Below are positions 4,860 through 43,066 of a DNA stretch of 43,066 nucleotides, piece after piece. The stretch is taken from the IMG/VR virus record IMGVR_UViG_3300028831_000453, positions 1 to 43,066 of that record; one strand, 5' to 3'. A program made the translations under genes and the position numbers. Source of the stretch: a virus. Every line of letters begins with the position of its first letter. Position 1 is the stretch's first letter. Under the pieces are notes generated by a model. The model had not been told where the DNA came from, did not search any database, and saw only the letters and a list, made by a program, of their open reading frames with translations.

Positions 4860-5193
4860 CGCTTCCCCTCCCTGTGAAATCGCGACTGTAGGGCCGCCAG
4901 CGCATGTAGCGCTTGGCGAGGACACTCGCCAGCACCTCGCGGCCCTCCTCGTCGATCAGCGTGAAATCTTCCCAGCGCGTAGCCGCCACCTGGCAGGTTG
5001 CGCACATCGTCTCCATGACGCCGATCTTGACGCCGCACTGCCGGCAGCGGCCGCGCTCCGAGCGCTTCCAGCGCTCCAGCCCGAGCCGACCGCTCTCGAT
5101 GCGGGTGCTGACGCGCTTGCCGTCCCTGCCGACCCGATCGACGGCGCCGTTCGTCGCGGCCGGATCAGCTTTCGGCGGGCGGGGCTTCGGCAA
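4831..5193 (-). CDS. Hypothetical zinc-ribbon protein (120 aa)
   Basis: TTG start with GGAG upstream, in a GC3-rich frame. CRQCG...CATC cysteine pairs. Overlaps both neighbours by 29 nt, so the start and the end of the coding part are uncertain. Confidence 0.5.
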   Translation of the reverse strand: MPKPRPPKADPAATNGAVDRVGRDGKRVSTRIESGRLGLERWKRSERGRCRQCGVKIGVMETMCATCQVAATRWEDFTLIDEEGREVLASVLAKRYMRWRPYSRDFTGRGSDDADGRKRR

Positions 5194-8454: not shown

Positions 8455-8749
8455 TGGCCACCTCGCTTCCCGCAAACCAAGGCGGCTTGATCTCGTACTC
8501 ATGCTCCTCAATGTCGGTAGTATGCTTCCAGAGCATCCCGCATCTTGGGCAGAACGTGATGACGCCCGGCCAGCACCAGTGGTCTGGCGGTATCCAGTTG
8601 CACAACTCATTGGACTGGATAGACTTGCACCCGTGGCCTAGTAGATGGCACACCGGGTGCATCCCCTTTGGCTTATCAAACATGATCCATACGAGAGCAG
8701 CTACTGTACTCATCACAGTGATACCCGCCAACTGCCAGATCAAATGCAT
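8444..8749 (-). CDS. Membrane-anchored Cys/His/Trp-rich protein (101 aa)
   Basis: Start at the internal ATG 8749. TM helix LAGITVMSTVAALVWIMF is followed by CHLLGHGC ... CNW ... CW ... CPRCG. Lower-GC segment. Confidence 0.6.
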   Translation of the reverse strand: MHLIWQLAGITVMSTVAALVWIMFDKPKGMHPVCHLLGHGCKSIQSNELCNWIPPDHWCWPGVITFCPRCGMLWKHTTDIEEHEYEIKPPWFAGSEVANAD

Positions 8750-13765: not shown

Positions 13766-14049
13766 GATGCACTCCCTTCCGCTTTGGCAATAGCGTCAAT
13801 CAACGCATCCTGTACCCGCGTGCTTGGTGCATTGCTCGGCTCATACGGTAGCGTGTGAATAAAGTCGAGCGCCCGCTTGCACGCTTCCAGCAAGTCCGGT
13901 GCGGCCGCAATCAGCCGCGCATTAGCTTGAAACTGATCATTCGATGCAGCCGCATCGGTCGAAAGGTTCGCGACCACGCCGTGCGATCGTTCGGCGCGGA
14001 CCCTGCCCGCTATCGGATACCACGGCCCCTCTGTGTGTGCCGCGCTCAC
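13762..14049 (-). CDS. Conserved-looking phage small protein with EGPW ... ANARLIAAAPDLLEA motif (95 aa)
   Basis: From memory, this motif pair recurs in many uncharacterised phage and prophage proteins. GTG 14049 follows GGAGGTG and overlaps the upstream stop. Confidence 0.65.
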   Translation of the reverse strand: MSAAHTEGPWYPIAGRVRAERSHGVVANLSTDAAASNDQFQANARLIAAAPDLLEACKRALDFIHTLPYEPSNAPSTRVQDALIDAIAKAEGSAS

Positions 14050-14249
14050 TGCGCACCTCCGCTCTTGCTCGCGCCGTCCGCTAGGCGCATGTCCACACCA
14101 TCAAACTCCCAAGCTCCAACCGCATCCTCCGCCCATGTGCTACCTGTCCACGTATACCGCGCCCCCGCGTCACTAGCCGGGGGCGCCACGATCTTCCCAC
14201 AACCCGCTAGCGCCATGAGTACCAGCGCGATGCCGGCTGCGCGCATCAT
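14046..14249 (-). CDS. Lipoprotein (67 aa)
   Basis: MMRAAGIALVLMALAGCGK is a signal peptide ending in the lipobox L-A-G-C. ATG overlaps the upstream stop (ATGA). Confidence 0.7.
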   Translation of the reverse strand: MMRAAGIALVLMALAGCGKIVAPPASDAGARYTWTGSTWAEDAVGAWEFDGVDMRLADGASKSGGAQ

Positions 14250-14509
14250 CGTCCACCATCCAACAATCGGCGCGCCCTAACCTCACACTCGCTACGCGGC
14301 ATACACTTCACAATCACTCGCGCCGCGCGCTTGAGCGCGCTCGCATAGCTTCCTGCTTCCCAACGCTCAAGCGGAACCTGTCCGCGCTCCGCAAACCCAA
14401 CGACATACTTCCCGGTGCTGATCTCCCGCCATGCGAACGCCTCATGCTCCGGGCGCATCATCGGTCCAAACATTTCCCGCGCCACTACTTCCGCATCGTG
14501 CTGAGTCAT
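14246..14509 (-). CDS. Hypothetical protein (87 aa)
   Basis: ATG 14509 overlaps the upstream stop (ATGA). Confidence 0.6.
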   Translation of the reverse strand: MTQHDAEVVAREMFGPMMRPEHEAFAWREISTGKYVVGFAERGQVPLERWEAGSYASALKRAARVIVKCMPRSECEVRARRLLDGGR

Positions 14510-14688
14510 CGTCCAATCCCTTCTCGCTCGTTCCGCTCGATCATGTCCAACACTTCCCGATAGGTGTGCCGCTCTGCGACATCCGGATATTCCCGCGTGA
14601 AGTCCAGAATCTTGCACGCGGCATCTACAGCCTCGTCCGGCCGCAGGTTATCGGCCGCCCAAGCCATCAAGTGCTCCAGGTTTCCCAT
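14506..14688 (-). CDS. First gene of the leftward arm, acidic hypothetical protein (60 aa)
   Basis: ATG 14688 follows GAGGGATGG. There is no further minus-strand coding signal upstream. Confidence 0.55.
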   Translation of the reverse strand: MGNLEHLMAWAADNLRPDEAVDAACKILDFTREYPDVAERHTYREVLDMIERNEREGIGR

Positions 14689-14771
14689 CGTCCATCCCTC
14701 GTGTTGTGCTCGACTCCTTCGAGCGGTCCGCTTCGATCGCATCCCGCCACCCGTCCCGACCGTTCACAGTG

Positions 14772-14801
14772 AGTATGAGACTGCACGCTCCGTGCCGTCA
14801 A
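14772..14801 (-). promoter_or_regulatory. Candidate sigma70-type leftward promoter: TTGACG-N18-CATACT
   Basis: Minus strand: -35 at 14801..14796 and -10 at 14777..14772, about 80 nt upstream of the first leftward gene. Consensus matching by eye only. Confidence 0.4.
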
Positions 14802-14946
14802 GTAAACTCTTGCGGCGCATCGAGCGCGATCGCGAACCGAGTGCAGCTTGCAATATGAGTCGTGCGTTGAGCACTCGATTTCTCGACGTCTGATGAACAC
14901 TTGGGCAGTGTCAAAAAACCTTACACTGCACACTCGTTCACTGTGT

Positions 14947-14977
14947 CAATATGTCCCACTGCGACAATATGTCCCAC
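14947..14977. repeat. Two direct copies of CAATATGTCCCAC (14947..14959, 14965..14977), period 18 bp: candidate regulator-binding sites or iterons
   Basis: Read directly, in the divergent non-coding region between the two arms. Confidence 0.8.
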
Positions 14978-15129
14978 ATTCACATTTCCACCTTATATAG
15001 CGCGTGCGCGGCGGCAGCCCCACCACCCCCCGGAGTCCCCCCGCGTGAGCGCGTTTTCCGTGAACTACCTTCACACGTCCCGCGCGCAAAAATCGCGAAC
15101 CGACGCGCCCGGCGCGGTCGAGATGGCGC

Positions 15130-15158
15130 TTGTCGCGTCGGTGTAGATACTATATACT
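15130..15158 (+). promoter_or_regulatory. Candidate rightward promoter TTGTCG-N17-TATACT ending 7 nt before the ATG (leaderless transcript predicted)
   Basis: -35 at 15130..15135, -10 at 15153..15158, ATG at 15166. No Shine-Dalgarno motif in the 7-nt gap (ACCGCCC). Confidence 0.45.
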
Positions 15159-15165
15159 ACCGCCC

Positions 15166-15429
15166 ATGTGCCAAGGCTGTGTCGATGAGGGATATATCAG
15201 CCAGTTCATATTCGATGTGATCGAAGCCTTCAGCGAGCGCTTCGACGACGACCTCGGCGTCGATTATGGGCCGGCGCACATCGTGATCGCCGACGACAAC
15301 GTCGATGACGAGTCAATCGATTACTGCCTGGCGCTGCCGAGCATGAACGAGCCGGAGCGCGGCTTCCTGCGCTGGCTCAAGACCGTGCCGATCGAGGAGC
15401 GGCTGGGCCGCTCGCCGGAGGTTGAATGA
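15166..15429 (+). CDS. Highly acidic first protein of the rightward arm (87 aa)
   Basis: Start at the internal ATG 15166 of ORF 15130..15429. Counted 11 Asp and 10 Glu against 6 Arg/Lys. N-terminal CQGC pair. Confidence 0.65.
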   Translation: MCQGCVDEGYISQFIFDVIEAFSERFDDDLGVDYGPAHIVIADDNVDDESIDYCLALPSMNEPERGFLRWLKTVPIEERLGRSPEVE

Positions 15430-16504: not shown

Positions 16505-16782
16505 GCGAGCAGTTTCTTGAAGCCGTCGAAGACCTAAAGACTTGGTGTTTCCGACAACAATATGCGGTTGACCATCCGCCAATGGCCGCGAATGAGTTCA
16601 GCACTCAAATAGACGCGGCACGTGCGAAGGTGATCGAGTTGTTCGACGCGGCGATTATTCGCTACGGTGAACTCGTGCGAGAGGCGTGTGCGGACTTCTG
16701 CGAGAGGAACGCCGAGCCAGGTATTGATGGCGTATCGTTCGCGAAGGCGCTGCGCATGCTGCCGCTACCGGAGCCGCGATGA
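16501..16782 (+). CDS. Hypothetical protein (93 aa), paralogue of the previous gene
   Basis: ATG 16501 overlaps the upstream stop (ATGA). YGELVREACADF and a terminal LPLPEPR. Confidence 0.6.
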   Translation: MSEQFLEAVEDLKTWCFRQQYAVDHPPMAANEFSTQIDAARAKVIELFDAAIIRYGELVREACADFCERNAEPGIDGVSFAKALRMLPLPEPR

Positions 16783-17477
16783 GCGTCGTAGCTGCGTTCA
16801 GCGGCGGCAAGGATAGCACCGCGATGGCAACGCTGATGGCCGAGGCTGGTGAGGACTTCTCGCTGCTGTTCACGCCGACTGGAAACGAGTCCGATGAGTG
16901 CCTTGAGCATGTTCGCCATACTGCCGAACGCCTAAGCAAGCCGTTCACCATCAGATGGTCGGGGCACGGCCTCGTATCGCTCATCGAGCGCCAGCGGGCG
17001 CTTCCAAACTGGCGGCAGCGCTGGTGTACGCGAATGCTCAAAATAGAGCCATGTCAGACATACCTAGCCGAGAATCCCGGCACGGTCTTGTGCGTAGGAC
17101 TTCGGGCGGATGAGCCCGAGCGGTCAGGCTTGTGGGGTGATCTCGCGACCTATCGTTACCCACTACGCGAGGCCGAGATGGGATTAACAGAAGTTGTGTC
17201 GTTTCTTGAGGAGCGGAAGATTTGTGTACCCTCGCGAACAGACTGCGCCCTATGCTTCTTCCAGCGATTGATCGAATGGTACGAACTGTGGCGCGACCAC
17301 CCCAATAAATATGCCGAGGGCGAGCGACTGGAGGCGCTGACTGGCCATACTTTCCGCTCGCCGCAGCGCGACACTTGGCCGACCAGCATGAAAGGGATGC
17401 GCACGTGGTTCGAGGCTGGTCTGATTCCAAAGGACACACGCCAACGCACCGGCATGTGTCGGGTATGCTCGCTGTGA
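16779..17477 (+). CDS. PAPS-reductase family PP-loop enzyme (232 aa)
   Basis: AAFSGGKDSTAM is a PP-loop SGGxDS motif. RWCTRMLKIEP matches the phage PAPS_reduct-type WC..LK..P motif. C-terminal cysteines CALC and CRVC. The ATG overlaps the upstream stop. Confidence 0.8.
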   Translation: MSVVAAFSGGKDSTAMATLMAEAGEDFSLLFTPTGNESDECLEHVRHTAERLSKPFTIRWSGHGLVSLIERQRALPNWRQRWCTRMLKIEPCQTYLAENPGTVLCVGLRADEPERSGLWGDLATYRYPLREAEMGLTEVVSFLEERKICVPSRTDCALCFFQRLIEWYELWRDHPNKYAEGERLEALTGHTFRSPQRDTWPTSMKGMRTWFEAGLIPKDTRQRTGMCRVCSL

Positions 17478-19321: not shown

Positions 19322-19567
19322 GTGGTCACCACGATTACCACGGCGGTCACCTCCAACTTTGTAGAGCATTGCTACACCGTGGGCTTCCCCAACACCTACC
19401 ATCGAGGCCGCTTGGAACACATCTTGAGATGTATGTTCCAGTGCCCGCACTGCCATCGCCTGTTTTGGCGCACTCGCAGTACGGAAATGCCGTGGCTGTT
19501 GTGTGATGGACCGTCTCTGGCGGGCATGACTTGGATTAGTTGCGAGGTCGAGGAACCGCCAGTATGA
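19322..19567 (+). CDS. Cys/His-containing small protein (81 aa)
   Basis: GTG start. Lower-GC segment. FQCPHCHRLF plus additional Cys and His. Its stop overlaps the terminase ATG. Confidence 0.5.
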   Translation: MVTTITTAVTSNFVEHCYTVGFPNTYHRGRLEHILRCMFQCPHCHRLFWRTRSTEMPWLLCDGPSLAGMTWISCEVEEPPV

Positions 19568-21456
19568 CTCGACGGGCGCGCTCCGACGAAGCGATCCTCG
19601 ATGCCGCGATCGCCCGCCGCGACTCCGGCAAGCCGTGGCGCTTCCGCGACGCCGAGCGGCTTGCGAAGCAGGCCACAGCCCGAGCGGCGCGCGCCGCCAG
19701 CATTCGTGCGAGCCGCGACCTGTGGGGGATCGCGGAGGGCGATCGCGATTTCCACAGCGTCTACACACCGCTGGAGCGCTGGCCCAGCGCCGTCGAGCAC
19801 GAGTTCTGGCGTCACGAGTGTGTCGAGCACTTCTGGCCCTTCTTCCTCCACGCATGGGGCACCCTCCACGGCCCCCACGCCCGCGACTGGTGGATCGATC
19901 GCCAGGAGGTCGCGGAGCCGCTCGCGTGGTGGCTGGAGCAGCAGGCGCGCACCTGGCTCGCGAGCCGGGCCGAGCACAAGAAGCTCATCCACCACATCGC
20001 GGTGATCGTCACGAGGGAGTTCGGCAAGACGACCATGCTCCAGGCGTGGTTCTTGTGGCTGCACCTCCAGGACCCCAACCTCTCGACCTATATCGGTGGC
20101 GAGAAGGAGTCGCTCGCGAGCGACTCGCTGCTGGCGATCCGGGCCGTTCTGGGAGGGAGCGACCGCCACGCCCAGTTCGCCAAGATGTACGGCGACTGGC
20201 TTGGCAGCGAGGGCATCCAGCGCCGCGAGTCGATCACCCACAATGTGCGCAGCACGACGACGCGCCGCGACCCCTCGTTTGGCGTGTGGGGCGTCGAGTC
20301 CGGCTTGACGGGCCGTCATCCCGACGCGGCGGCGCTCGACGACCCCAACACCTACGAGCGCCAGCAGGCGCAGGGCAACTGGTTCGACATCGTCACCCTC
20401 CACTGCGCCAGCCTGACGCCGGTCATCCGCGTGGACGGCCTGTTCGCGCTGTGGGGCACCCCCTACGCCGACAACGATCACCTCGCCAAGACGCTGCGCC
20501 GCGACGGCATCGCGTCCATCACGGGCCTGCCGATGCACGACTTCACGCCGCGCGCGAACGGCGCGTGGCACGTCTTCCACTTTCCGGGGCGCACCCGCAG
20601 CGGTCGGCCGACCGTCCCGAACGTGTGGTCCGAAGCGCGCATGAACGCCTTCGAGCTGGAGAATCCCGATCGCTACGCGGCACAGGTGCTGCTCCGGCCG
20701 GAGATCAGCGAGCGCAACCCGCTCACGCTGGAGCAGATTCAGGACTGCATGGTGGACGAGAAGGACATCCCCATGAACTTCCTGCGCTATACGCTGCACT
20801 TCGACACCGCGTTCAAGGACAGCTTCCGCCGCGACGGCGACGAGAGCGTCTTCGTCGTGTGGGGCCACATGCGCGACGGCTCCGGCGAAGTGGTATATAT
20901 AGAGGGCCACGGCAGCAGCCTGTGGCGCGGTGAGGAGTTCTACCGAGAGGTGGTGCGCCTGCTGCAACGTTATCGGCGCATGGGCCGCAAGATCGTCGCC
21001 ATCACCGACGAAGTGTCGCCGGGCAAGCGCCAGACCGGCCGCATGATGCTCGAATCGCAGTGCAACGGCGCGGGCATCAGCCGCCCAGGCGAGTGGATCG
21101 AGATCGCGCGCGGCGGCAAGAAGAAGCTTGAGCAGCGCATCATCCCGGCCGCCACGATGTGGGCGGATGGCTACGTCAAGCTCGTTCGCACGGCGCCCGG
21201 CCTCGACAAGCTGGTCGCGCAGATGTCGCGCATCGGCAGGAGCGACTTGGACGACTGGGCCGACGCGAGCGCTGATGTCTTCAACCCCTCGGTCTATCGC
21301 CGCCAGCGCCGCGCCGATCGTCCCGACGAGAGCGTCCCCGCGTGGCTCGCGTCCCCGCAGGACGTGATCCTGAAGGGCGCCGCCCACGACGAAGCGCTGC
21401 GGCGCCAGTACGACAGCTGGGTCCGGCGCGACGAGATGGATTATGAGCCAGTCTGA
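19564..21456 (+). CDS. terL: Terminase large subunit (630 aa)
   Basis: ATPase Walker A-like TREFGKTT. Nuclease-domain acidic motifs LHFDTAF, DESVFVVWG and DDWADASAD near the C-terminus. Position upstream of the portal. ATG 19564 overlaps the upstream stop (ATGA). Confidence 0.85.
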   Translation: MTRRARSDEAILDAAIARRDSGKPWRFRDAERLAKQATARAARAASIRASRDLWGIAEGDRDFHSVYTPLERWPSAVEHEFWRHECVEHFWPFFLHAWGTLHGPHARDWWIDRQEVAEPLAWWLEQQARTWLASRAEHKKLIHHIAVIVTREFGKTTMLQAWFLWLHLQDPNLSTYIGGEKESLASDSLLAIRAVLGGSDRHAQFAKMYGDWLGSEGIQRRESITHNVRSTTTRRDPSFGVWGVESGLTGRHPDAAALDDPNTYERQQAQGNWFDIVTLHCASLTPVIRVDGLFALWGTPYADNDHLAKTLRRDGIASITGLPMHDFTPRANGAWHVFHFPGRTRSGRPTVPNVWSEARMNAFELENPDRYAAQVLLRPEISERNPLTLEQIQDCMVDEKDIPMNFLRYTLHFDTAFKDSFRRDGDESVFVVWGHMRDGSGEVVYIEGHGSSLWRGEEFYREVVRLLQRYRRMGRKIVAITDEVSPGKRQTGRMMLESQCNGAGISRPGEWIEIARGGKKKLEQRIIPAATMWADGYVKLVRTAPGLDKLVAQMSRIGRSDLDDWADASADVFNPSVYRRQRRADRPDESVPAWLASPQDVILKGAAHDEALRRQYDSWVRRDEMDYEPV

Positions 21457-22072
21457 GGAAAGTTCGCGCAGCGAACTTGAGGGGGGCGCGGTGAAGGCCG
21501 ACTCGTCGGACCGAGGGACTGGCGCGCCGGCCACAGGGACTGCGCCCCCCGTCACGCTGACAAGCCTGACCGCGCACCGCATCACCGAGCCGTGGCAGGT
21601 CGAGCGGATGCGCCAAATCTACAACGAAACGCTCCCCGACCTGGCGACTCGTCCCGGCCTGACGCCGCGCACCGAAGCCGCGCAACAAGAGTGGTGGTCC
21701 GAGGTCCACGACCACGCGGTCGCCCACCTCTACAGTCCCATCACCGAACCGTGGAAGTTCGTCGCGTTCTCGCTCGTCCAATGGAAGCCGGGCGGCATCG
21801 TCACCCCGCTGTTCGCGATCGAGACCGCGTGGCAGGGTCGCGGTCTCGGGCGCCAGATCATCGACCACTACCTCAAGATCGCGAACGCCCCACTCGCGGG
21901 CAGCGCTCTCACGAGCAACCGCGCGATCATGCACCTCAATGAGCGCGCCGGCTGGCAGCAGCTCGCCGAGCGCGATGGCGTCGCTCTGCTCTACCACCCC
22001 GGCCCGCACCCGACCGACGACGCCCGCCAGCGCGAAATCTTCGACGCGATCATGGAATATCATGGCCTCTGA
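21443..22072 (+). CDS. GNAT-family N-acetyltransferase (209 aa, low-complexity N-terminal 50 aa)
   Basis: AWQGRGLGRQIIDHYL matches GNAT motif A (Q/R-x-x-G-x-G/A). Start uncertain; ATG 21443 overlaps the terminase by 14 nt. Confidence 0.7.
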   Translation: MSQSEESSRSELEGGAVKADSSDRGTGAPATGTAPPVTLTSLTAHRITEPWQVERMRQIYNETLPDLATRPGLTPRTEAAQQEWWSEVHDHAVAHLYSPITEPWKFVAFSLVQWKPGGIVTPLFAIETAWQGRGLGRQIIDHYLKIANAPLAGSALTSNRAIMHLNERAGWQQLAERDGVALLYHPGPHPTDDARQREIFDAIMEYHGL

Positions 22073-22679
22073 CGCGGCGACGGCGACGGCAACCGTCAGC
22101 ATCCTCTGCCCCACGCTCGGTCGCAGTTCTCTCGGCACGATCGTCCAGCAGGCGGACATCCAGCTCGGCCCCCACGACGAGCTGATCGTGGTCGGCGATG
22201 GCCCGCGCCCCGCAGCACGCACGCAGATGGAGCCCTTCGTCACCGATCCGCGCTTCCAATATCTGGAGTTCCCGCCCGACGCCCCGACCGGCCACTACGG
22301 CAGCGAGCAGGTCGATCACGCCATCACCCACGCGCGTGGCAACTACCTGATGTTCATCGGCGACGACGACGAGTTGGCTCCCGAAGCCATCAGCACCTTC
22401 CGCAAGGTCTGCACGCCCATCGACCCCCACCCCTACCTGTTCGCCATGAGCTACGCCGGTGAGATCATGCGCCGCAACCTCCACTGCGGCGGCTGCAGCG
22501 GTCAGCAGTTCGTGGTCCCCAACGATCCCGCGCGGCTCGCCCGCTACTCCGACAGCGGCGGCCAGACCAACGATTGGCACTTCATGTCCCGAACGCTCGA
22601 ACTGTGGGGCGGCCGGATCGAGATTCGCGACGAAATCCTGACCATCCTGCGTGGCCGCCACCACGGAGCCATCTGGTGA
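22062..22679 (+). CDS. Family-2-type (GT-A) glycosyltransferase, short soluble form (205 aa)
   Basis: VSILCPTLGRSSL ... ELIVVGDG is the GT2 N-terminal pattern, and MFIGDDDEL is a DxD motif. No TM segments seen. Confidence 0.65.
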   Translation: MASDAATATATVSILCPTLGRSSLGTIVQQADIQLGPHDELIVVGDGPRPAARTQMEPFVTDPRFQYLEFPPDAPTGHYGSEQVDHAITHARGNYLMFIGDDDELAPEAISTFRKVCTPIDPHPYLFAMSYAGEIMRRNLHCGGCSGQQFVVPNDPARLARYSDSGGQTNDWHFMSRTLELWGGRIEIRDEILTILRGRHHGAIW

Positions 22680-23779
22680 AGCTCAACCTCGATCCATGTC
22701 ACCGCATGAGCGGCGAGCTGCTGACCGTCATCGCTCGCGTCGTCACGAGCGAGTGGTACATTCGCGGTCCCGAGTTCGACGCCTTCAACGCGGAGTTCGC
22801 GGCCAGCATCGATCCGCGCGCCCACGCGGTGGGCGTCGGCAGCGGCACCGACGCCCTCTACCTGATCCTGCGCGCTGCCGGCATCGGTCCCGGTGATGAG
22901 GTCATCAGCCCCGCGATGAATGTCGCTTATACGGCGCTCGCGATCGCCAACGTCGGTGCGACGCCCATCTTCGCGGACGTGGACCCAGCGACGTTGACAC
23001 TCGACCCCTCGGCAGCGGCAGCCGCCATCACCCCGCGTACGAAAGCCCTGATCCCGGTACATCTGTATGGGTACATGGCCGACATGCGCGCGCTCGCGGA
23101 GATTGCCCAGCGCCATGCCCTGCTGCTGATCGAGGATGCCTGCCAAGCGCATGGCGCTACACTCGACAGCCGCGCAGCCGGCGCGTGGGGCGATGCAGCG
23201 GCCTTCAGCTTCTACCCGACCAAGAACCTCGGCGCGTTCGGCGACGGCGGCGCGGTCGTGTCGCGCGACGCAGCACTGATCGAGCGCATCAGCCAGCTCG
23301 CGGACGGCGGCCGCAGCGACCGCTACGAGCACGCCGAGGTCGGCATCAACAGCAGTCTCGATGAACTCCAAGCGGCGGTGCTGCGCGTCAAGCTCAGCTA
23401 CCTGTCCGACTCCACGACGACCCGGCGCGCCCTCGCCAGCCGCTACACTGAAGCCTTCGAGGGCAGTCCGCTTCAGTTGCCAGCGGAGCTACCCGGCTAC
23501 CGTCACGTCTATCACCTCTATGCGGCGCGCAGCCAGCAGCGCGACGATCTGCGAATGCGCCTCGCGGAGCACGATATCCCGACGCTCATCCACTACCCGA
23601 TCCCCGTCCACCTCCAGCCCTGCTTTGCATCCCTCGGAGGTCGCGTGGGCCAGCACCCGGTCGCCGAGCGCGCCGCGCAGACGCTGCTCTCGCTCCCGCT
23701 CCATCCCGAGCTAACCTACGACGACCAGCAGCGCGTCATCACGACGACGCTCGCAGAGGTAGCCGCCAGTGCCCATTGA
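22676..23779 (+). CDS. DegT/DnrJ/EryC1/StrS-family PLP-dependent sugar aminotransferase (367 aa)
   Basis: GSGTDALYL, IEDACQAHGA and FSFYPTKNLGAFGDGGAV (catalytic Lys context), plus INSSLDELQAAVL. GTG overlaps the upstream stop (GTGA). Confidence 0.9.
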   Translation: MKLNLDPCHRMSGELLTVIARVVTSEWYIRGPEFDAFNAEFAASIDPRAHAVGVGSGTDALYLILRAAGIGPGDEVISPAMNVAYTALAIANVGATPIFADVDPATLTLDPSAAAAAITPRTKALIPVHLYGYMADMRALAEIAQRHALLLIEDACQAHGATLDSRAAGAWGDAAAFSFYPTKNLGAFGDGGAVVSRDAALIERISQLADGGRSDRYEHAEVGINSSLDELQAAVLRVKLSYLSDSTTTRRALASRYTEAFEGSPLQLPAELPGYRHVYHLYAARSQQRDDLRMRLAEHDIPTLIHYPIPVHLQPCFASLGGRVGQHPVAERAAQTLLSLPLHPELTYDDQQRVITTTLAEVAASAH

Positions 23780-25754
23780 CATCGTCGCCCCGTCGGTCGT
23801 CAACCCGCCGCGCCCGCTGGTTGGCATGGGCCGCCAGTCCGACCGCGCCACCTACGCCCTGGCGCGCCAGCGCGCTGACAACGAGCGCTATGTCCAACTG
23901 GTGCGCGACCGCAAGCAGAAGTCTGAGCGCGTGTTCATGGCATACTATCAGCGCCTGGCGCGCCTCTACGACCGCTACCGTGGCATCTACAGCGGCAAGT
24001 TCGCCGCGTTCCGCAACAACATCCACATCCCGTTCATCTACAGCGTGATCCAGTCCGACGTAGCGCGGAAGGTGCAGATGTCACTCGGCAACTGGCCGCT
24101 GATGAGCTTCGAGGGCTACGCGCCCGAGGACGAGCCGATCGCGCGCAAGAACGAGCTGCTCGTGTCGGTGCAGTTCGAGGACGCCAAGCTCTACCAGAAA
24201 GCGATCGACTTCTTCCTGACGACCGACCTCTACGGCGTCGGCATCATGCGAGATGGCTGGAAGAGGGACATCCGCCGCAAGCGCATCCGGGTGCCACTTC
24301 CAGTGGCACCGGGCGTCACGATCGACCAGGTCGCCACCACCTGGCAGACCTTCTACGACGGTCCCAACTGCTACGTGGTCGATCCGCTCGACTTCATGCC
24401 GCAGCCCGGCATGCGCTTCATCGACGATATGATGTACGCCACCGAACGCTACTGGCGCGACCTCGACGACATGCGCGCCCAGGTCGCAGCGGAGATCGCG
24501 AACGGCATCCCGCGCGACGAGCTGTCGTTCGATCCAGCGGCGCTGGATCAGGTCGCCGCGACCGGCACCGAGAGCGACGCCGGCTCCCGCCTGATCGAGC
24601 GCTTGTCCATCTATCGCAACCAAACCGACTGGGAAGCGCGCAAGGGCGACAAGTATTCCAAGACCGTCGAAGTGTGGGACCACTGGTGTGCGCTGCCTGA
24701 CGAACTCGTCCCGCCCGACGGCATCCGCCACCGGCAGTTGATCGTCCTCAACGGCCGCGTCCTCGCCAAGAACGCGCCCAATCCCAACGATAACGGTGAG
24801 AAGCCCTGGACCAGCTACTCGATCGGCGACCCTCACTACTTCCACGGTGTCGGCAAGAGCGAGCTGCTCGAAAAGCTCCAGGCCGCCGCCAATCGGCTGA
24901 TGAACCACGTGCTGGACGTGCAGGATTTGACGCTCAGTCCCGTGTTCCTGGCGAACAGCAGCATCTTCCCCCATCAGAATCTGGTGACGCAGCCCGGCCG
25001 CGTGTTCTCGATAGATGGACCCGTGGGCGACGACGTGATCCGGCCGATCGCGATCGACCGCCAGGGCCTCCAGACCGCGATGCCCCTGGTCAACCTGATG
25101 TGGCAGTACATGCAGCAGGGCTCGGGGATCGTGGAGGACATCGTCCAAGGCGGCCAGGGCCAGCGCCAGACCGCGCGTGAGTTCCAGGGACGCCAGGAGG
25201 CGGTGATGACCCGCCTCATGATGGAGTCCCGCATCGCCGAGGAGATGTGGCTCGAACCGCTCGCCAACCGCTTCCGCATGCTCAATCGCCAGTACCTGCC
25301 GCTGCCGAAGCAGATGTCGATCTTGGGCTCGCTCGCGCGCTTCAATCCCATCACCGGCAGTCCCCTGCCGCCGGACCTCAACCCGACGATCACCCACGAA
25401 GACCTGTGGCCCGACTACCGGGCGCGTGCGGTAGGCGCCAACCAAACGATGATGCGCAGCGCGACGCAGCAGAACGTGATGATGCTGCTCCAGGCGATGT
25501 CCGCCAACCCGCCGCTGATGCAGCTCGTCAACTGGGTCAACTTCGCGCGCCAAATGTTCGAGGTGTTCGGCTTCAGGAACGTGCAGGAGCTGCTCGTGCA
25601 GCTCCCGCAGGTCGGCATGGGCAGCCAGATGATGGGCGTGCCGCCCGAGGCGGCGGCGACCGCGATGGGCTCGCCCGAGACGCTCGATCCCTCGCACATC
25701 CAGTCGATGATGGCTGCCGGCGGCGAGCTGGGCGGTCTCGCAGCACCCTTCTAA
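23769..25754 (+). CDS. Portal protein (661 aa)
   Basis: Large ORF between the packaging genes and scaffold/capsid. Size, position and the N-terminal segment (YDRYRGIYSG..NIHIPFIYSVIQSDVARK) resemble podovirus portals. Not verified by search. Confidence 0.7.
   Translation: MPIDIVAPSVVNPPRPLVGMGRQSDRATYALARQRADNERYVQLVRDRKQKSERVFMAYYQRLARLYDRYRGIYSGKFAAFRNNIHIPFIYSVIQSDVARKVQMSLGNWPLMSFEGYAPEDEPIARKNELLVSVQFEDAKLYQKAIDFFLTTDLYGVGIMRDGWKRDIRRKRIRVPLPVAPGVTIDQVATTWQTFYDGPNCYVVDPLDFMPQPGMRFIDDMMYATERYWRDLDDMRAQVAAEIANGIPRDELSFDPAALDQVAATGTESDAGSRLIERLSIYRNQTDWEARKGDKYSKTVEVWDHWCALPDELVPPDGIRHRQLIVLNGRVLAKNAPNPNDNGEKPWTSYSIGDPHYFHGVGKSELLEKLQAAANRLMNHVLDVQDLTLSPVFLANSSIFPHQNLVTQPGRVFSIDGPVGDDVIRPIAIDRQGLQTAMPLVNLMWQYMQQGSGIVEDIVQGGQGQRQTAREFQGRQEAVMTRLMMESRIAEEMWLEPLANRFRMLNRQYLPLPKQMSILGSLARFNPITGSPLPPDLNPTITHEDLWPDYRARAVGANQTMMRSATQQNVMMLLQAMSANPPLMQLVNWVNFARQMFEVFGFRNVQELLVQLPQVGMGSQMMGVPPEAAATAMGSPETLDPSHIQSMMAAGGELGGLAAPF
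23772..23780 (+). promoter_or_regulatory. CCCATTGAC motif, copy 2 (at the portal start, spanning the aminotransferase stop)
   Basis: Read directly. It lies within coding sequence, so it may be coincidental. Confidence 0.25.
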
Positions 25755-26252: not shown

Positions 26253-26993
26253 ATGACCGTCTCGAACCAGCCGCCAGCGAATCCTGCGGCCCCCGACGCC
26301 GATCCGATCAACACCGCCCTCCGCGACGTGAACTACCAGAGCGTCGATGAGTGGAAGGAAGCCACTCACGCGGCCCGAGGCCGCCTGCGGCAGCAGCAGG
26401 AGCAGCTTCAAGCTCTTCAAGCGCAGCTTGAAGAGGTGCAGCGCCGCATGTTGCCGAGCGAAGCTCGTCAGCAGCGCGACTCCGCTGCCGACCTCGCGAC
26501 CTACGTCCCGATGGACGCTCTCGACGCCTACGTCAACGACCGCATCCAGCGCAGCATCGACGGCACGATCGGCCCGCTCGTCAAGACCAACGCAGCCCTA
26601 ACCCGCGTCAAGGCAGCGATTCCTGACTTCGCGCGTTTCGAACCCGAGTGGCAGCAGTGGCTTGCTGCCAATCCCGACTTGAATCGACGTTTCCAGGAAG
26701 GCCTCTTGAAGGCCCCCGACGAAGCTGACCTCACGATCGCCGGAGCCTACAAGCTCTTCGAGACCGAGCGTCGCGCGAGCGCGCCCGAGCCCAAGCCGCC
26801 AACCGTCCCCAACTCCGCGACGCTCCCATCGACACAGGGCAGCGGCTCGGCGCGGGGCCAGGACGTGGGCGGCCCATCTCCCGAAGAGATGCAGGCAACC
26901 GTCAAGGCGGCCAGCGCTGGAAACGTCCGCGCCAAGATTCAGCTCATGAAGTGGCGTGGCATCATGCACCCGGAGCTACCGCCGCAGCCCTAG
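26253..26993 (+). CDS. Scaffolding protein candidate (246 aa)
   Basis: Located between portal and capsid. Gln/Glu/Leu-rich coiled coil (RLRQQQEQLQALQAQLEEVQRR) with low-complexity ends. Confidence 0.65.
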   Translation: MTVSNQPPANPAAPDADPINTALRDVNYQSVDEWKEATHAARGRLRQQQEQLQALQAQLEEVQRRMLPSEARQQRDSAADLATYVPMDALDAYVNDRIQRSIDGTIGPLVKTNAALTRVKAAIPDFARFEPEWQQWLAANPDLNRRFQEGLLKAPDEADLTIAGAYKLFETERRASAPEPKPPTVPNSATLPSTQGSGSARGQDVGGPSPEEMQATVKAASAGNVRAKIQLMKWRGIMHPELPPQP

Positions 26994-27030: not shown

Positions 27031-28005
27031 GTGGCTCATCCAGTTCAACAGTCCGTCTATGAACTCGGCGGTCCGTTTGCTGGCGGCAGTTCCGTCATCA
27101 AAGAAGACCTCGCCGACGTTGTCATCAACATCGACCCCTACGACACTCCCGGCTACTCGACGTTCGCCAAGACCGTCGCCAAGTACACCAGCCACGACTG
27201 GGTGGTCGCATCCCTGAGCGCGACCAGCACAGCAGGCACCGAGGAAGGTAAGACCTTCGCACCCGCTGCGCGCCCCAGCCGCGTGCGTCTCATCAACCTG
27301 ACGCAAATCTTCGAGAATCCCTTCGTCGTCAGCGACACGATGCGCGCGGTCGATCCGGCCGGCGTCACCGACGAGTACATGCTGCAAGCGATGTACGCGA
27401 TGCAGGAGGAGACGCGTAACATCGAGTCCAGTATCTTCAAGATCGCTTCGACCAGCGCTACGGGCGACGACGCGGCTGGCACCGGCGCCGTGCGCGTCAT
27501 GAAGGGTCTGCGCGGCTTCAACGTCACCAACAACGCGACCTACTATGTCCAGTTGACGGCGCAGACTACGACTATTGCAACCGGCGACATCATCAACCTC
27601 CACGAAGCCATGTTCACCCTCGGCGCCAAGCCCGACAGCCTGTGGGTGTCGCCGGGCGTCAAGGCTGACCTGACCAAGGCACTCGTCGCCGCCGGCGGCA
27701 ACTTCCGCCTCAACATCGCCGCCAGCGACAACACGATGATCAACAACATCGAAGTCTTCCAGAGCGACTTCGGACTGCTGCCGATCATCACGGATCGATT
27801 CATCCCGCAAGCGTCGGCCTCGACGACGAGCGCCGCATGGTTCCTGATCGAGCGCTCCAAGGTCCGGATCGCGGTGCTGCGGCCGATGCACCACGTTCCG
27901 ATCGCGAAGCGCGAAGACGGCACGGCCGGCAACGTCATTACCGAGCTGACGCTCGAACTCATGCATCCCTATTGTGTGGGAGCCGGCACTGGCGTCACGA
28001 CCTAA
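27031..28005 (+). CDS. Major capsid protein, HK97 fold, DUF5309/SU10-type (324 aa)
   Basis: KEDLADVVINIDPYDTPGYSTFAKTVAKYTSHDW and LINLTQIFENPFVVSDT match the conserved N-terminal pattern of this capsid family as I remember it. GTG follows GGAGG. Confidence 0.85.
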   Translation: MAHPVQQSVYELGGPFAGGSSVIKEDLADVVINIDPYDTPGYSTFAKTVAKYTSHDWVVASLSATSTAGTEEGKTFAPAARPSRVRLINLTQIFENPFVVSDTMRAVDPAGVTDEYMLQAMYAMQEETRNIESSIFKIASTSATGDDAAGTGAVRVMKGLRGFNVTNNATYYVQLTAQTTTIATGDIINLHEAMFTLGAKPDSLWVSPGVKADLTKALVAAGGNFRLNIAASDNTMINNIEVFQSDFGLLPIITDRFIPQASASTTSAAWFLIERSKVRIAVLRPMHHVPIAKREDGTAGNVITELTLELMHPYCVGAGTGVTT

Positions 28006-28017
28006 GTCGATGGGACC

Positions 28018-28136
28018 GAGGGCTGGGTATCTGCTCCAGGAGCGGCAGCCCTCGCAAACCAGCCAAGTGTGGGCGGGGCGGAAACCCTGAGCCGGACGAC
28101 GCGCCCGCCCACAAACTGGCCCCGCAATGCGGGGCC
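28018..28136 (+). terminator. Three consecutive GC-rich stem-loops after the capsid gene (28018..28053, 28068..28113, 28118..28136): candidate attenuator or mRNA-stabilising structures
   Basis: Stems GAGGGCTG/CAGCCCTC, TGTGGGCGGG/CCCGCCCACA and GGCCCCGC/GCGGGGCC, read directly. No U-tracts. Confidence 0.45.
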
Positions 28137-28151
28137 GCATGGAGGTGGCAC

Positions 28152-28469
28152 ATGAAGCACCCGAAACCGCGCCAGGGCGCCGACTACCGCCCAATCGGCG
28201 CACACGGCAATGCCCGCGCCGCGAACTTCGACCACGCCATCGACAGCCAGGAATCGAAGCTCGCCGAGGTCGCTCGCGCGTGGGGCGTCGATCCCGACCA
28301 GTACATTGGCGAGACCGCCGACGGTAAGCTACAGTTCTTCGACGCCGGTCCCGACGAATCGAACGGCGTCACGTATGAGGGACCGATGCCCAACTCGACG
28401 CCCTACATCCCGAAGGTCCGCAAGCCCAGCGACCCGACGCCGGGCATCAAGAAGGGGCACGGTTTGTGA
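28152..28469 (+). CDS. Hypothetical protein after the capsid (105 aa)
   Basis: ATG 28152 lies 5 nt after GGAGGTGG, in the GC3-rich tail of ORF 27837..28469. Confidence 0.65.
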   Translation: MKHPKPRQGADYRPIGAHGNARAANFDHAIDSQESKLAEVARAWGVDPDQYIGETADGKLQFFDAGPDESNGVTYEGPMPNSTPYIPKVRKPSDPTPGIKKGHGL

Positions 28470-28804
28470 GCGACGCACCGCAGCAGTTCTACGTACGTAA
28501 TCGAGACAACGACTGTCTCGATTACATGACCGACGATCGCTACCTGATGCGCAAGATTCCGGAGATGCGGGATCAGTTCGCGCACATCCGCTCGCTCCAG
28601 GAGCGATACTGGGACCTCCGCAAGATCACCTCCAACGGCGCGGTCGTGGGCGGTGCTGGCGACATGAAGTCTGTGGCGCTGATCCCCAAGGATGTCTTCC
28701 TCGCGGCTGAAGCGCTGGAGCCTGACTTCGTGAAGGACAAGTCGAAGTTCTTTGCGTGGCTGGAGCGCAATCCGCAATACAAATCCAACAGGGGGCCGCG
28801 CTGA
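28466..28804 (+). CDS. Hypothetical protein (112 aa)
   Basis: GTG overlaps the upstream stop (GTGA). Confidence 0.65.
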   Translation: MSDAPQQFYVRNRDNDCLDYMTDDRYLMRKIPEMRDQFAHIRSLQERYWDLRKITSNGAVVGGAGDMKSVALIPKDVFLAAEALEPDFVKDKSKFFAWLERNPQYKSNRGPR

Positions 28805-30135
28805 TGCCGCCGCTCCGCATCTACAGCATCGCCAACACGGTGACGTACAACGCTTCGACCTACTATCGCATCGATGTCCCGTTGACGACGATGGAGGAAC
28901 TCGGCCTGCCGGTCGAGCCGATTGTCGATTCCGGCGACCCCTCGATCCCCAACATCAATCGCGTTCTGGCGGTCACGCAGGCCGACATCAACCTGTTCTA
29001 CCAACCGGTCAGCGACTCGCTGCGGGAGCAGATGATCCGGCTCAAGTCCCTCTACCCGGCGCGCGACGCGACCGGCACATGGAAGTATCCGCCGAGCTTC
29101 GTCGTGGACACGGATGACAACCTGTTCATGGTCCATCCCATGAATCCCCAGTTCCGCGAGCTGGGCATCCGCATGCCAGATGGCAAGCTGCTTCGCCCCG
29201 GCGACGAAGTCGGCTCGATCGACGCCGAGACCAACGAGCGCATCGTCCTATGGAAAGACGGCCAGCGCGGCTTCGACATCGCCCGCAACATCGATCGGCT
29301 CCGCAGCTATCGCGACATCCTGGCGACCGCCGAGGGCGTGACGTGCTCCACGCCGCGCAGCGCCGAGTACGTCACCGCCGAGTCCGGCAACACGAATACC
29401 TTCGTGTCTCCGAACATGGTCCGCTTCGATCACTACGACAAGATCGACCTGCGCAACCACGCGCCCGAGGTGTGGGTGCTGTGGCAAGGTTCGACCACGC
29501 ACTTCGAGGACTTCTACGACATCCGAAACGCCCTCCCACTGGTCGTGAAGCGCTACCCGCAAGTGCGCTTCATCTTCTGGGGCGCCCTCCACCCGTGGAT
29601 CATCCAGAACCTACCTAGCGACCGCTTCAAGTACATCCGCTGGTGTCCCTACGCGGAGTATCGCTTGCGCCTCGCGACCATCGGCCACGACATCGCGATC
29701 GCCCCGCTGCGCCCGCACCGCTTCAACCAGTGCCGTAGCGCCATCAAGTTCTACGAGTCGGCGGTGCTCGATCGGCCAGCGGCGTTCCTGGGCCAGGGCG
29801 GCGAGACACCCTACGGCGACGAGGTGATCGACGGCCAGACCGGCCTCTTGTGGACGAGCGTCGAGGACTTCGTGACGAAGCTCAGCACGCTCATTGAGGA
29901 CGAGACGACGCGCTACTACCTCGCGTCCAACTCGCGCGACTGGTTGAGCGAGCACCGCGATGCTATGAAGCTCGCGCGTCCGCTGTACGAGTTCTATCAG
30001 AGCGTGCGCGCCCGCAAGCGTGACACGACGGCGCTGCCCAGTCCCGAGGAGTGGGCGACCAAGCGCGACGAAATCCTGAGCGCCGTCAACGCCCAACTCG
30101 CCGACTCGAACGGCCAACGTGTTCACGCCGAGTAG
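28804..30135 (+). CDS. GT-B-fold (GT1/GT4-like) glycosyltransferase (443 aa)
   Basis: The C-terminal half has the GT-B donor-domain pattern: VWVLWQGS...RFIFWG, DIAIAPL, SAIKFYESAVLDRPAAF, EVIDGQTGLLW and LIEDETTRYYL. The ATG shares its A with the upstream TGA. By-eye assignment. Confidence 0.6.
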   Translation: MPPLRIYSIANTVTYNASTYYRIDVPLTTMEELGLPVEPIVDSGDPSIPNINRVLAVTQADINLFYQPVSDSLREQMIRLKSLYPARDATGTWKYPPSFVVDTDDNLFMVHPMNPQFRELGIRMPDGKLLRPGDEVGSIDAETNERIVLWKDGQRGFDIARNIDRLRSYRDILATAEGVTCSTPRSAEYVTAESGNTNTFVSPNMVRFDHYDKIDLRNHAPEVWVLWQGSTTHFEDFYDIRNALPLVVKRYPQVRFIFWGALHPWIIQNLPSDRFKYIRWCPYAEYRLRLATIGHDIAIAPLRPHRFNQCRSAIKFYESAVLDRPAAFLGQGGETPYGDEVIDGQTGLLWTSVEDFVTKLSTLIEDETTRYYLASNSRDWLSEHRDAMKLARPLYEFYQSVRARKRDTTALPSPEEWATKRDEILSAVNAQLADSNGQRVHAE

Positions 30136-31048
30136 TCTCGTCGCCAGTGCGGCGGCTGCCGTGGTCGCCCAAACGGCAGGTGCTGGGAGCGACGCGGAGT
30201 CGCTGACGCTGGCGACGAGATCACTCGACGCGGCCGCGATGCGCTGGAATCGCTTGAAGTGGAAGTTTCTGTACACGGAGCAGTATATCGCGCTGGCGGC
30301 GCCGTTCACGGTCACCGGGTGCTCGGTGACAGCGGGCTCGACGACGCTCACGACGACTGTCGCTAGCGGCTTCGCGAGTGTGCTCGTGGACGACCTGATC
30401 GTCGATGCCAACTCGCTCGCGGGCGAGGTGCTCGTCGCCGCCGGCACCGGGACCGCCAGCACCGCCGTCACGATGCTGGCACCGGCGCTCACCACCACGA
30501 GCGGCATGTCGATCACCTTCCGCAGGCCGCTCTACGCCATTGCAAGCAATGTAAAGTCAGTATATGACCTGCGGCTAGGCGGCACCGCGTTCGTTCGACC
30601 GCTGTTCTACATCCAGCGCCGCAGCTACGATCGGCGCATCATCGACCAAGTGTCCGGTAGCACGCCCGTCGCCTACGACCTGTTCCTCCAGTCCGATCGG
30701 GGCAAGCTGCGCGTCATCCCGCCGCCCGACGCCGCGTACACGCTGCTCTTCCGCTACCATCGGCGCATCACGCTGCCGTCGCTCAACGCGACCGCGACGC
30801 TCGACATCCCTCAAGATTACGAAGATGTCTTCCTGGCGTGCGCCAAAGCGAACTTCCTGACCGACAAGAAGGACGACGGCGACCGGCGCGCGTACTGGGA
30901 CCGCTACGCGCGTGAGGGCCTCGCGCAGATGCGCAGCGACGAAGCCTACCTGGCGGACGAGATACTGACCTTCGAGCCGCCGAGCTACGGCGTGTACACC
31001 AACTTCGACCCCGGCACCTACCCGCAGTGGGAGTGGGGGACGTGGTAG
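30119..31048 (+). CDS. Head-tail adaptor or tail-tubular-A-like structural protein (309 aa), function tentative
   Basis: Assigned on its position between the head genes and the giant tail protein. GTG start overlaps the glycosyltransferase by 17 nt. No diagnostic motif. Confidence 0.6.
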   Translation: MFTPSSLVASAAAAVVAQTAGAGSDAESLTLATRSLDAAAMRWNRLKWKFLYTEQYIALAAPFTVTGCSVTAGSTTLTTTVASGFASVLVDDLIVDANSLAGEVLVAAGTGTASTAVTMLAPALTTTSGMSITFRRPLYAIASNVKSVYDLRLGGTAFVRPLFYIQRRSYDRRIIDQVSGSTPVAYDLFLQSDRGKLRVIPPPDAAYTLLFRYHRRITLPSLNATATLDIPQDYEDVFLACAKANFLTDKKDDGDRRAYWDRYAREGLAQMRSDEAYLADEILTFEPPSYGVYTNFDPGTYPQWEWGTW

Positions 31049-42697: not shown

Positions 42698-43066
42698 CCC
42701 GCTGGGTGCGCTGCTCGACTTTGGCGGCAAGCTGATCGATCGGTTGATACCTGATCCGAAGCAGAAGGCCGATGCGATCCTCAAGCTCCAGGCGCTCCAG
42801 CAGTCGGGCGACCTCGCGGTGATCGCCTCGCAAAGCGAGATCAACAAGGTGGAGGCAGCGAGCCCGCGCATGTTCATCGCCGGCTGGCGGCCGTTCATCG
42901 GATGGATTTGCGCGTGCGGGCTGGGGATGCAGTTCATCGTGGCGCCACTGTTCAACTGGGTTGCGGCGCTGCTGCACCAGCGCGTGACCTTCCCGCCGCT
43001 CGACACGAGTGTGCTGATGACGCTCCTGGTCGGCATGCTTGGGCTGGGCGGGATGCGCACCGTAGA
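42687..43066 (+). CDS. Holin of the 3-TM GTA-holin/DUF3154 type, 5-prime part (runs off the window end and continues at nt 59..92)
   Basis: LKLQALQQSGDLAVIASQSEINKVEAASPRMFIAGWRPFIGWICACGLGMQF and a C-terminal LLVGMLGLGGMRTVEK match the pattern I recall for this family (N.VEAAS...F.AGWRP.IGW ... GMLGLGG.R..EK). Confidence 0.8.
   Translation, partial: MSIDPLGALLDFGGKLIDRLIPDPKQKADAILKLQALQQSGDLAVIASQSEINKVEAASPRMFIAGWRPFIGWICACGLGMQFIVAPLFNWVAALLHQRVTFPPLDTSVLMTLLVGMLGLGGMRTV
43009..43066. repeat. Terminal overlap copy B (identical to 1..58)
   Basis: Read directly. Confidence 0.95.

Follow-up and report, generated by a model that had tools for sequence, protein, structure and literature searches.

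A divergent GT-B-fold glycosyltransferase encoded between the capsid and adaptor genes of uncultured soil podophages

The IMG/VR virus record IMGVR_UViG_3300028831_000453 (hereafter the window, meaning the whole stretch of 43,066 nucleotides) encodes, within its morphogenesis operon, a 443-residue protein whose structural model decisively adopts the GT-B fold and which is very probably an active GT-B glycosyltransferase (GT). Through this protein we define a large glycosyltransferase family that is nearly wholly phage-borne and carries a non-canonical active-site signature (DTDD, H233/R311/K315). In one clade, made up of uncultured soil podophages of high guanine-cytosine (GC) content with SU10-type capsid, portal and adaptor, the gene keeps an essentially invariant place between the capsid and adaptor genes; our literature searches found no description of either the clade or the gene arrangement. 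We propose, tentatively and at somewhat less than an even chance, that the GT is the late priming enzyme of a virion-protein glycosylation system that works with swappable islands of sugar genes.

The gene is real and lies in the morphogenesis operon. The open reading frame (ORF) at 28804-30135 runs without stops for 443 codons, and its GC content is 0.86-0.88 at third codon positions against 0.43 at second positions, as is typical of coding sequence in this genome of about 65% GC. Its ATG at 28804 overlaps the TGA of a 112-residue ORF by one base (cgcTGATGccg), AGGGGG stands just 5' of the start, and the adaptor ORF begins inside the gene, 17 nt ahead of its stop. We also considered GTG 28756 as the start and rejected it: homologues begin at the ATG at 28804, which has both the Shine-Dalgarno sequence and the stop overlap. 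An earlier model-made reading of the letters and ORFs (the sequence-only reading) had correctly given the extent of the gene, its place as the third gene past the capsid gene and directly before the adaptor, and the base that its start shares with the upstream stop.

Fold and active-site signature

Profile searches with the window protein yielded no Pfam match at E<=0.01, a match to PHROG 7162 'glycosyltransferase' over residues 170-384 (E 3.4e-20), and one to an NCBIfam GT4 model over residues 341-401 (E 7e-5, far under the cutoff); GT4 matches among NCBIfam models and PDB sequences are weak and restricted to the last helices. A large-database search returned 117 homologues, among which P0002-P0115 are full or near-full length and 35-76% identical, many lie on 40-50 kb contigs, and PF00534, PF13524 or PF13692 is present in several of them. 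When 56 family members were scanned singly, 43 matched PF00534 (best 8.5e-9), 35 matched PF13524 and 14 matched PF13692. The GT1/GT4-like C-terminal pattern described in the sequence-only reading is therefore real, as PHROG 7162 and the PF00534 matches of the family show, and weak in the window protein itself.

We built an AlphaFold2 model of the protein on the alignment of its homologues (pLDDT 94.2, pTM 0.91). DSSP assigns two beta-alpha-beta Rossmann-like domains, residues 4-201 and 223-350, followed by C-terminal helices. Foldseek against the PDB gave 366 matches at E<=1e-3, and the best 50 of these 366 are all GT-B-fold proteins, mostly glycosyltransferases together with UDP-GlcNAc 2-epimerases. 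The top matches are retaining GT4 enzymes (E 6e-14 to 1e-9, probability 1.0), the list being led by sucrose-phosphate synthase (SPS) 6kih (6e-14), PglA, PimA, MshA, BshA, TreT, TarM and SdgB, and in BFVD the best matches are uncultured-phage proteins labelled 'Glycosyl transferases group 1' (E 2e-27, probability 1.0, template-modelling (TM) score 0.85). The structural comparison with GT-B enzymes thus bears out the fold that had been expected from sequence. What the protein shares with the retaining GT4 enzymes (PimA 2gej, MshA 3c4q, BshA 3mbo, PglA 8dqd, SPS 6kih) is the pair of Rossmann-like domains, with TM scores up to 0.70 normalised to the target at a sequence identity of only 9-15%; the C-terminal helices and the 'DG.TG.L' region also align in sequence. 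It differs from them in having DTDD(D/N) after strand 4, an invariant R311/S312/K315 and an insertion of about 40 residues.

Enzymes of the GT-B fold bind donor and acceptor at the strand ends and helix starts of their two domains. Across the GT family D104, D105, Q228, G229, H233, G260, R311, S312 and E318 are invariant, and A17, Y21, R22, E340, T346 and G347 nearly so; the stretch F307-E318 is conserved, with R311, S312, I314 and K315 invariant or almost invariant. Strand 4 is followed by the invariant D104 and D105 in DTDD[D/N]LF, and WQG[SG]xxHxED, in which H233 is invariant, stands at the end of the C-domain's first strand. Mapped by secondary structure, the conserved residues lie at strand C-termini and helix N-termini of both Rossmann-like domains, and because these are Rossmann ligand-binding positions, they speak for an active site that works and against mere recruitment as a scaffold. 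Two distant, shorter homologues, P0116 and P0117, keep the same motifs (hhalign probability >99%) and lack the insertion in the acceptor domain (residues ~122-165), which is specific to the phage clade. P0116 is an orphan gene in an actinobacterial metagenome-assembled genome (MAG), where its context is uninformative.

The hallmarks of GT4 enzymes are an EX7E motif with both of its glutamates and a glycine-rich loop after the first strand of the N-domain, and it is here that the protein departs from a conventional assignment. A weak phmmer alignment (E 0.08) of family member P0098 to MshA sets FNQSRSAIKAYES opposite FNESFG-LVAMEA. In it the invariant E318 falls on the second Glu of EX7E (MshA E324), and the equivalent motif of the family is one residue longer than the canonical one. 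Several observations then weigh against a canonical GT4 and, to that extent, against an assured activity. The first Glu (MshA E316) corresponds to the variable position 309 (Q in 16, R in 13, D in 6, L in 4, E in 4 and K in 3 of 56); no GG is present in the N-domain loop after strand 4-9, which reads x-P-x-x-Y-N-A-S-x-Y-Y-R instead; and a profile of the C-domain core (residues 218-352) matched nothing relevant among PDB sequences, so that the EX7E mapping rests on the one weak alignment together with secondary structure. The donor-binding signature claimed from sequence accordingly survives in its second glutamate and fails in its first. Since two features that define GT4 fail, we file the protein as a divergent GT-B lineage with GT4-like affinities and not as a bona fide GT4, and neither its activity nor its mechanism should be taken for granted. 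The non-canonical active site merits biochemical study in its own right.

A fixed place in the morphogenesis module

The family is large and virtually confined to phages. An exhaustive search with a hidden Markov model recovered 823 clusters at E<=1e-30 and 9,524 at E<=1e-10, with homologues nearly all on phage contigs, and a scan of one genome per species for 185,579 prokaryotic species gave a single GT match. This match (locus L090, contig CAZIRH010000166.1) is a 9.7-kb phage fragment of 63% GC in a Solibacteraceae MAG, and its genes stand in the same order as in the window: major capsid protein (MCP), homologue of the 112-residue protein, GT, adaptor and nozzle. Its presence in a MAG of Acidobacteriota is a faint clue to the host or a binning artefact. 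Among 50,697 phage records, the tblastn matches at E<=1e-5 come from no more than two Streptomyces phages (four records) and a single uncultured phage. The right arm of the genome has no megablast match in these records, which leaves the phage with no close cultured relative.

For synteny we examined 80 IMG/VR loci and based the counts on the 67 whose GT is at least 31% identical. The MCP gene lies 0.4-3.1 kb upstream of the GT in 52 of the 53 loci with enough flank, the portal gene is upstream in 46 of 46, and an adaptor homologue follows within about 1 kb on the 3' side in 55 of 60 (the adaptor in the remaining five is probably too divergent to detect). Overall, the 67 loci hardly depart from one gene order: portal, capsid, small ORFs, GT, adaptor. 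Independent gene calls on four contigs returned the same order, with the adaptor start overlapping the GT end in each. Between capsid gene and GT the relatives carry nothing but small unknown ORFs and homing endonucleases. We conclude from this conserved position that the GT is a core gene of the clade's morphogenesis module and not a recent moron.

Adjacency to the capsid gene, which the sequence-only reading had proposed to examine in other phages, is thus close to a rule within the clade. The nearest matches in cultured phages, the gp5/gp6 GT (PHROG 7162) of the Streptomyces phages Zuko and KimJongPhill, are 26-28% identical over residues 154-412 and share the motif family of the window GT; in KimJongPhill the gene stands where the structural region begins, beside genes for a UDP-glucose dehydrogenase and a methyltransferase. 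These proteins differ, however, in being 332 residues long and without the N-domain features, and their genes lie upstream of the terminase in an 82-kb Streptomyces phage.

In relatives, the slot equivalent to that of the GT can hold a virion-borne carbohydrate-active enzyme: the Sinorhizobium phage phiM5 (locus L092) has at 7349-8659, between its capsid gene and tail tubular protein A, a gene for a 437-residue GDSL/SGNH hydrolase that is annotated as detected in the particle proteome. This bears on a further explanation, namely that the GT-B fold was recruited as a structural, chaperone or ejected particle protein, in a virion-associated or non-catalytic role. That relatives keep virion proteins between capsid and adaptor genes (the phiM5 hydrolase and a 'virion structural protein' of phage BUCT640), that the GT gene is coupled to the adaptor gene and that the canonical catalytic Glu of GT4 is missing would all fit such a role. 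We nevertheless consider it very unlikely, given that the invariant residues cluster at positions lining the GT-B cleft and are not spread over a surface, that DDxLF, GSxTHxxD and FNxx[RK]SxIKxxE are kept in distant homologues of cellular type, that an extracellular glycosyltransferase has no donor substrate, and that genes for sugar-nucleotide tailoring co-occur repeatedly with the GT.

A variable sugar island and the proposed function

A second group of sugar genes lies upstream, between terminase and portal (Table 1). The GT2 gene that the sequence-only reading had named at 22062..22679 holds up (PF00535, 29.2 bits, cutoff 23.3; NCBIfam matches of WcaA/PglI type at about 1e-6), and homologues occupy the same gap in loci L011 and L020. 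Both of the unrelated transferases noted in that reading, GT-B and GT2, do lie in the late operon, yet they form no obligate pair: the closest relative, whose GT is 73% identical, has neither GT2 nor DegT, and its gap holds only small unknown ORFs. The aminotransferase (PF01041, E 5e-107) has a start inferred from a GTGA overlap, the longest ORF beginning at 22574. Its best named PDB relatives are the C3-aminotransferases DesV 2oga (317 bits), QdtB 3frk (297 bits) and WbpE, which suggests C3 specificity; its top PDB match overall is 7b0d, deposited as a glutamine-scyllo-inositol transaminase (326 bits), and it reaches no NCBIfam equivalog cutoff. For the GNAT ORF, a profile of seven homologues matches RimI (E 4e-4), 12 of 12 PDB matches are GNAT proteins, and one homologue is labelled GNAT by the Joint Genome Institute (JGI); the putative start, GTG 21491, is preceded by GAGGGGGG, and the longest ORF begins at 21443. 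The best solved relatives are RimI-type protein N-acetyltransferases, and the protein could acetylate either an amino sugar or a protein. A RimL-like acetyltransferase is also found among the tail genes of record MW202801.

No nucleotidyltransferase, 4,6-dehydratase or ketoisomerase was found among the proteins scanned from the complete genome, in which small ORFs were partly scanned; because enzymes that make the precursor were not found there, the keto-sugar would have to come from the host. The island is thus a tailoring branch of two or three steps that would depend on a host nucleoside-diphosphate (NDP) keto-sugar, and the 'dedicated amino-sugar pathway' of the sequence-only reading shrinks to this tailoring branch, aminotransferase plus GNAT.

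The gap itself (21457-23768 in the window) varies from 0.1 to 4.5 kb across relatives, with variable gaps noted in loci L004, L005, L011, L018-L022, L034, L035, L050-L053 and L069. Across relatives, its 80 non-redundant ORFs include sugar C-methyltransferases (8), FkbM methyltransferases (5), GT2 enzymes (3), one DegT and one cytidylyltransferase, and it also carries RNase H-like exonucleases and (homing) endonucleases. The GNAT-GT2-DegT island is accessory and swappable, whereas the GT-B is core. In distant aquatic relatives, whose GT is 25-30% identical, a glycan cassette fills the 4-6 kb from capsid gene to GT-B; it encodes WbqC, GT2, hexapeptide acyltransferases, methyltransferases, kinase-like proteins, UDP-glucose dehydrogenase and PIG-L deacetylase. 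MW202524, the nearest capsid relative in GenBank, has three other GT genes right behind its capsid gene.

Under the proposal that we favour, the GT would be made late, alongside the structural proteins and probably below the level of the capsid protein, as a soluble cytoplasmic enzyme that takes its sugar from a nucleotide-sugar of the host and attaches it to a conserved acceptor of the phage. This acceptor would most likely be a virion protein, with the threonine-rich C-terminal tail of the capsid protein as the leading candidate. From a host NDP-keto-deoxyhexose, the GNAT and the C3-type aminotransferase of the island would make an N-acetylated amino sugar, which the GT2 would add as a second residue, and related phages would vary the glycan through other tailoring enzymes at the same site. 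The gene itself, its fold and family, the conserved cleft residues, the synteny and the variability of the island are observed; catalysis by the window GT, its donor, its acceptor, the order of action and any link between the two loci are what we infer. For the proposal speak the fixed and translationally coupled place of the GT inside the head-tail operon, the structured spacer past the capsid gene, the strongly conserved acceptor domain with its clade-specific insertion, the near absence of the family from cellular genomes, the recurrence of sugar-nucleotide tailoring genes with the GT, and the mycobacteriophage precedent discussed below.

The capsid tail is proposed as acceptor from its sequence. 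Capsid proteins of the clade (MCP genes of loci L007-L073) end in a ...HPSxWxAxTGVT(N/T)(G/T) tail, and G[VIL][TVI][TNGAS] occurs within the last eight residues of 38 of the 48 unique MCPs in the GT-bearing clade. The tail of the window MCP is ...GTGVTT (C-terminal peptide ...HPYCVGAGTGVTT), and the MCPs of phiM5 and BUCT640, which have no GT, are without a TGVT-type tail.

Several points tell against virion glycosylation, and against the capsid tail in particular. The correlation between tail and GT is confounded by phylogeny, and the MCP has no C-terminal extension past the SU10_MCP profile (residues 21-323 of 324 aligned). The slot that holds the GT is filled in phiM5 by the virion-borne SGNH hydrolase, so position alone does not prove a capsid modifier. 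The cassettes with WbqC and acyltransferases look equally like genes for O-antigen or host glycans. Finally, the window GT has no detectable homology to mycobacteriophage GTs (tblastn at E<=1e-5 over the 50,697 phage records).

The O-antigen-like cassettes raise the main alternative target, the host envelope: late in infection the GT-B and the tailoring enzymes might act on lipid-linked or cell-wall glycans (precursors of lipopolysaccharide, exopolysaccharide or capsule), which could stop progeny from adsorbing to infected cells and debris or exclude superinfecting phages. Besides WbqC and hexapeptide acyltransferases, the relatives' cassettes share UDP-glucose dehydrogenase, GT2 and methyltransferases with O-antigen clusters; the distant homologue P0117 is labelled 'O-antigen biosynthesis protein' by JGI; PglA, PimA and TarM, three of its structural neighbours, have lipid-linked or wall glycans as their targets; and in lysogeny viral GTs are known to change the serotype of the host (PMC12619734). 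Profile scans of the complete genome, however, found no integrase, which makes the phage likely lytic, and the GT gene is embedded and translationally coupled in the head-tail operon. None of the cassettes yielded a flippase, a polymerase or a priming phosphoglycosyl transferase. Moreover, the N-terminal acceptor domain is highly conserved among phages with capsids only about 40% identical, and cellular orthologues are nearly absent, which fits a phage-encoded acceptor better. We regard remodelling of host glycans as unlikely on this balance; were host glycans nonetheless the target, the GT would be an ordinary auxiliary gene in an unusual place.

The GT-B fold is also that of the T4-type DNA glucosyltransferases. 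On this analogy, the protein might glycosylate a modified base in the progeny's DNA ahead of packaging, like the alpha- and beta-glucosyltransferases of T4. The shared fold speaks for this possibility, as do a PAPS-reductase/DndC-like protein and the uracil-DNA-glycosylase (UDG)-like domain of the window's PolA, which hint at unusual DNA chemistry; viral GTs hypermodify DNA with diverse glycans (Pyle 2024, cited in PMC12619734). Yet no dCMP/dUMP hydroxymethylase, thymidylate-synthase-like gene or other route to a hydroxymethyl base was found among the scanned proteins, the GT belongs to the late structural operon and not to the replication genes, which occupy the other strand, and no DNA glucosyltransferase is among the best 50 of the 366 structural matches. 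We therefore judge DNA glycosylation to be highly improbable.

Virion glycosylation, by comparison, has viral precedents to which the arrangement in the window can be likened. To our knowledge, some actinobacteriophages are the only phages whose particles have been shown to bear covalently bound glycans, and in them the modification alters antibody recognition. Chlorovirus PBCV-1 encodes the GTs and sugar-nucleotide enzymes by which its major capsid protein is glycosylated. Mycobacteriophage GTs are described as glycosylating the C-termini of capsid and tail-tube subunits (Freeman 2023, as summarised in PMC12619734 and PMC11600133), and virion GTs of these phages as often accompanied by a methyltransferase (PMC12619734, PMC11600133). 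Like the mycobacteriophages Che8, Corndog and Myrna (Freeman et al. 2023, Cell Host Microbe 31:1216), the window has a GT and tailoring enzymes in its late region, and its capsid protein has a conserved C-terminal tail containing threonine. It differs in being a podophage with an SU10-type capsid and a GH108 lysin, a type typical of Gram-negative hosts; its GT, moreover, has a set place between capsid and adaptor as a core gene, whereas those of cluster F1 mycobacteriophages lie near the 3' end of the genome (PMC11256854). The statement in the sequence-only reading that capsid-adjacent GTs are the hallmark of mycobacteriophage systems is therefore inaccurate as it was put. The similarity to the chlorovirus GT-B (B736L-type, PDB 3oy2, from NY2A) is generic to the fold, at rank 46 among the structural matches and 9% identity, and that system belongs to a eukaryotic giant virus with another capsid fold and N-linked atypical glycans. 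In sum the system resembles capsid glycosylation in mycobacteriophages and chloroviruses without homology of the enzymes; what sets it apart is the other type of phage, the core GT and the swappable hot-spot.

A bolder version of the proposal, which we find doubtful as a whole, is a hard-wired glycan coat of the virion throughout the clade. The GT-B would recognise and prime a conserved phage acceptor, such as the TGVT tail of the capsid protein, by way of its N-domain insertion and the terminase-portal hot-spot would swap modules for C-methyl sugars, N-acetylated amino sugars, O-methylation and cytidylyl-activated donors, much as in an O-antigen-like serotype system. If this were so, virion glycosylation would extend from actinobacteriophages to phages apparently of Gram-negative hosts. 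More generally, if the GT decorates virions, an abundant lineage of environmental phages would possess glycan coats as a character both fixed and diversifying, with a bearing on adsorption, particle stability in soil, evasion of recognition by hosts and predators, and the engineering of phage surfaces.

Neighbouring genes and genome layout

The features of the late arm discussed above are collected in Table 1. After the adaptor follow the gene of a 1059-residue nozzle-like protein and then the tail genes.

Table 1. Late-arm features of the window from terminase to adaptor
Feature	Position	Strand	Basis or remark
Large terminase	19540..21456	+	PHROG 38, E 1e-37; left edge of variable sugar island
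GNAT-fold acetyltransferase	21491..22072	+	First gene of accessory sugar island
GT2 (GT-A type) glycosyltransferase	22062..22679	+	PF00535; accessory
DegT/DnrJ/EryC1 NDP-keto-sugar aminotransferase	22676..23779	+	PF01041; accessory
Portal	23769..25754	+	PF23899 SU10_portal, E 1.3e-18; right edge of variable sugar island
246-residue ORF, scaffold position	26253..26993	+	Assigned solely by gene order in relatives
SU10-type MCP	27031..28005	+	PF17236 SU10_MCP, E 3.7e-53
Structured intergenic region, 146 nt	28006..28151	+	RNA folding
105-residue ORF, first gene past capsid gene	28152..28469	+	ORF call
112-residue ORF, translationally coupled to GT	28466..28804	+	Stop/start overlaps
Divergent GT4-like GT-B glycosyltransferase, 443 residues	28804..30135	+	Fold, PHROG 7162
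Head-to-tail adaptor	30119..31048	+	PF24175 SU10_adaptor, E 1e-8

The spacer behind the capsid gene folds into three GC-rich hairpins with a minimum free energy of -78 kcal/mol (z -3.4; 0 of 200 shuffles fold as well). A terminator scan of it found no canonical terminator and no U-tract; lying between the capsid and downstream genes, it might serve for attenuation, for RNA processing or for RNA stability. Because this structured spacer lies behind the capsid gene, the GT is probably expressed at a lower level than the capsid protein. The 105-residue ORF that follows has GGAGG 7 nt before its ATG, has no family match and is not detectably conserved in relatives by tblastn. The 112-residue ORF overlaps it through GTGA. 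Homologues of the 112-residue protein lie upstream of the GT in most related loci (tblastn, 24-68% identity, some alignments short); the protein has no Pfam or PHROG match, a word-indexed search gave only three homologues, and its AlphaFold2 model (pLDDT 53) is unusable.

The first 58 nt of the window (1-58) are repeated exactly at its end (43009-43066), which shows the phage genome to be complete and circularly assembled, with a length of about 43,008 bp. A replication arm on the minus strand encodes the PolA fused to the UDG-like domain, helicase-type ATPases and an exonuclease. The DNA polymerase A gene lies at 2337-4925 on the minus strand, with the UDG-superfamily domain (PF03167, E 4e-15) at the N-terminus of its product. 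The PAPS-reductase/DndC-like protein (16779-17477; PHROG 424, E 3e-37), the sole hint of nucleic-acid modification chemistry in the genome, opens the plus-strand arm. Both GC skew and coding strand switch at about 14000-15400, with minus-strand genes to the left of about 14 kb and plus-strand genes to the right of about 15 kb, marking a boundary between divergent early and late transcription and a possible origin region.

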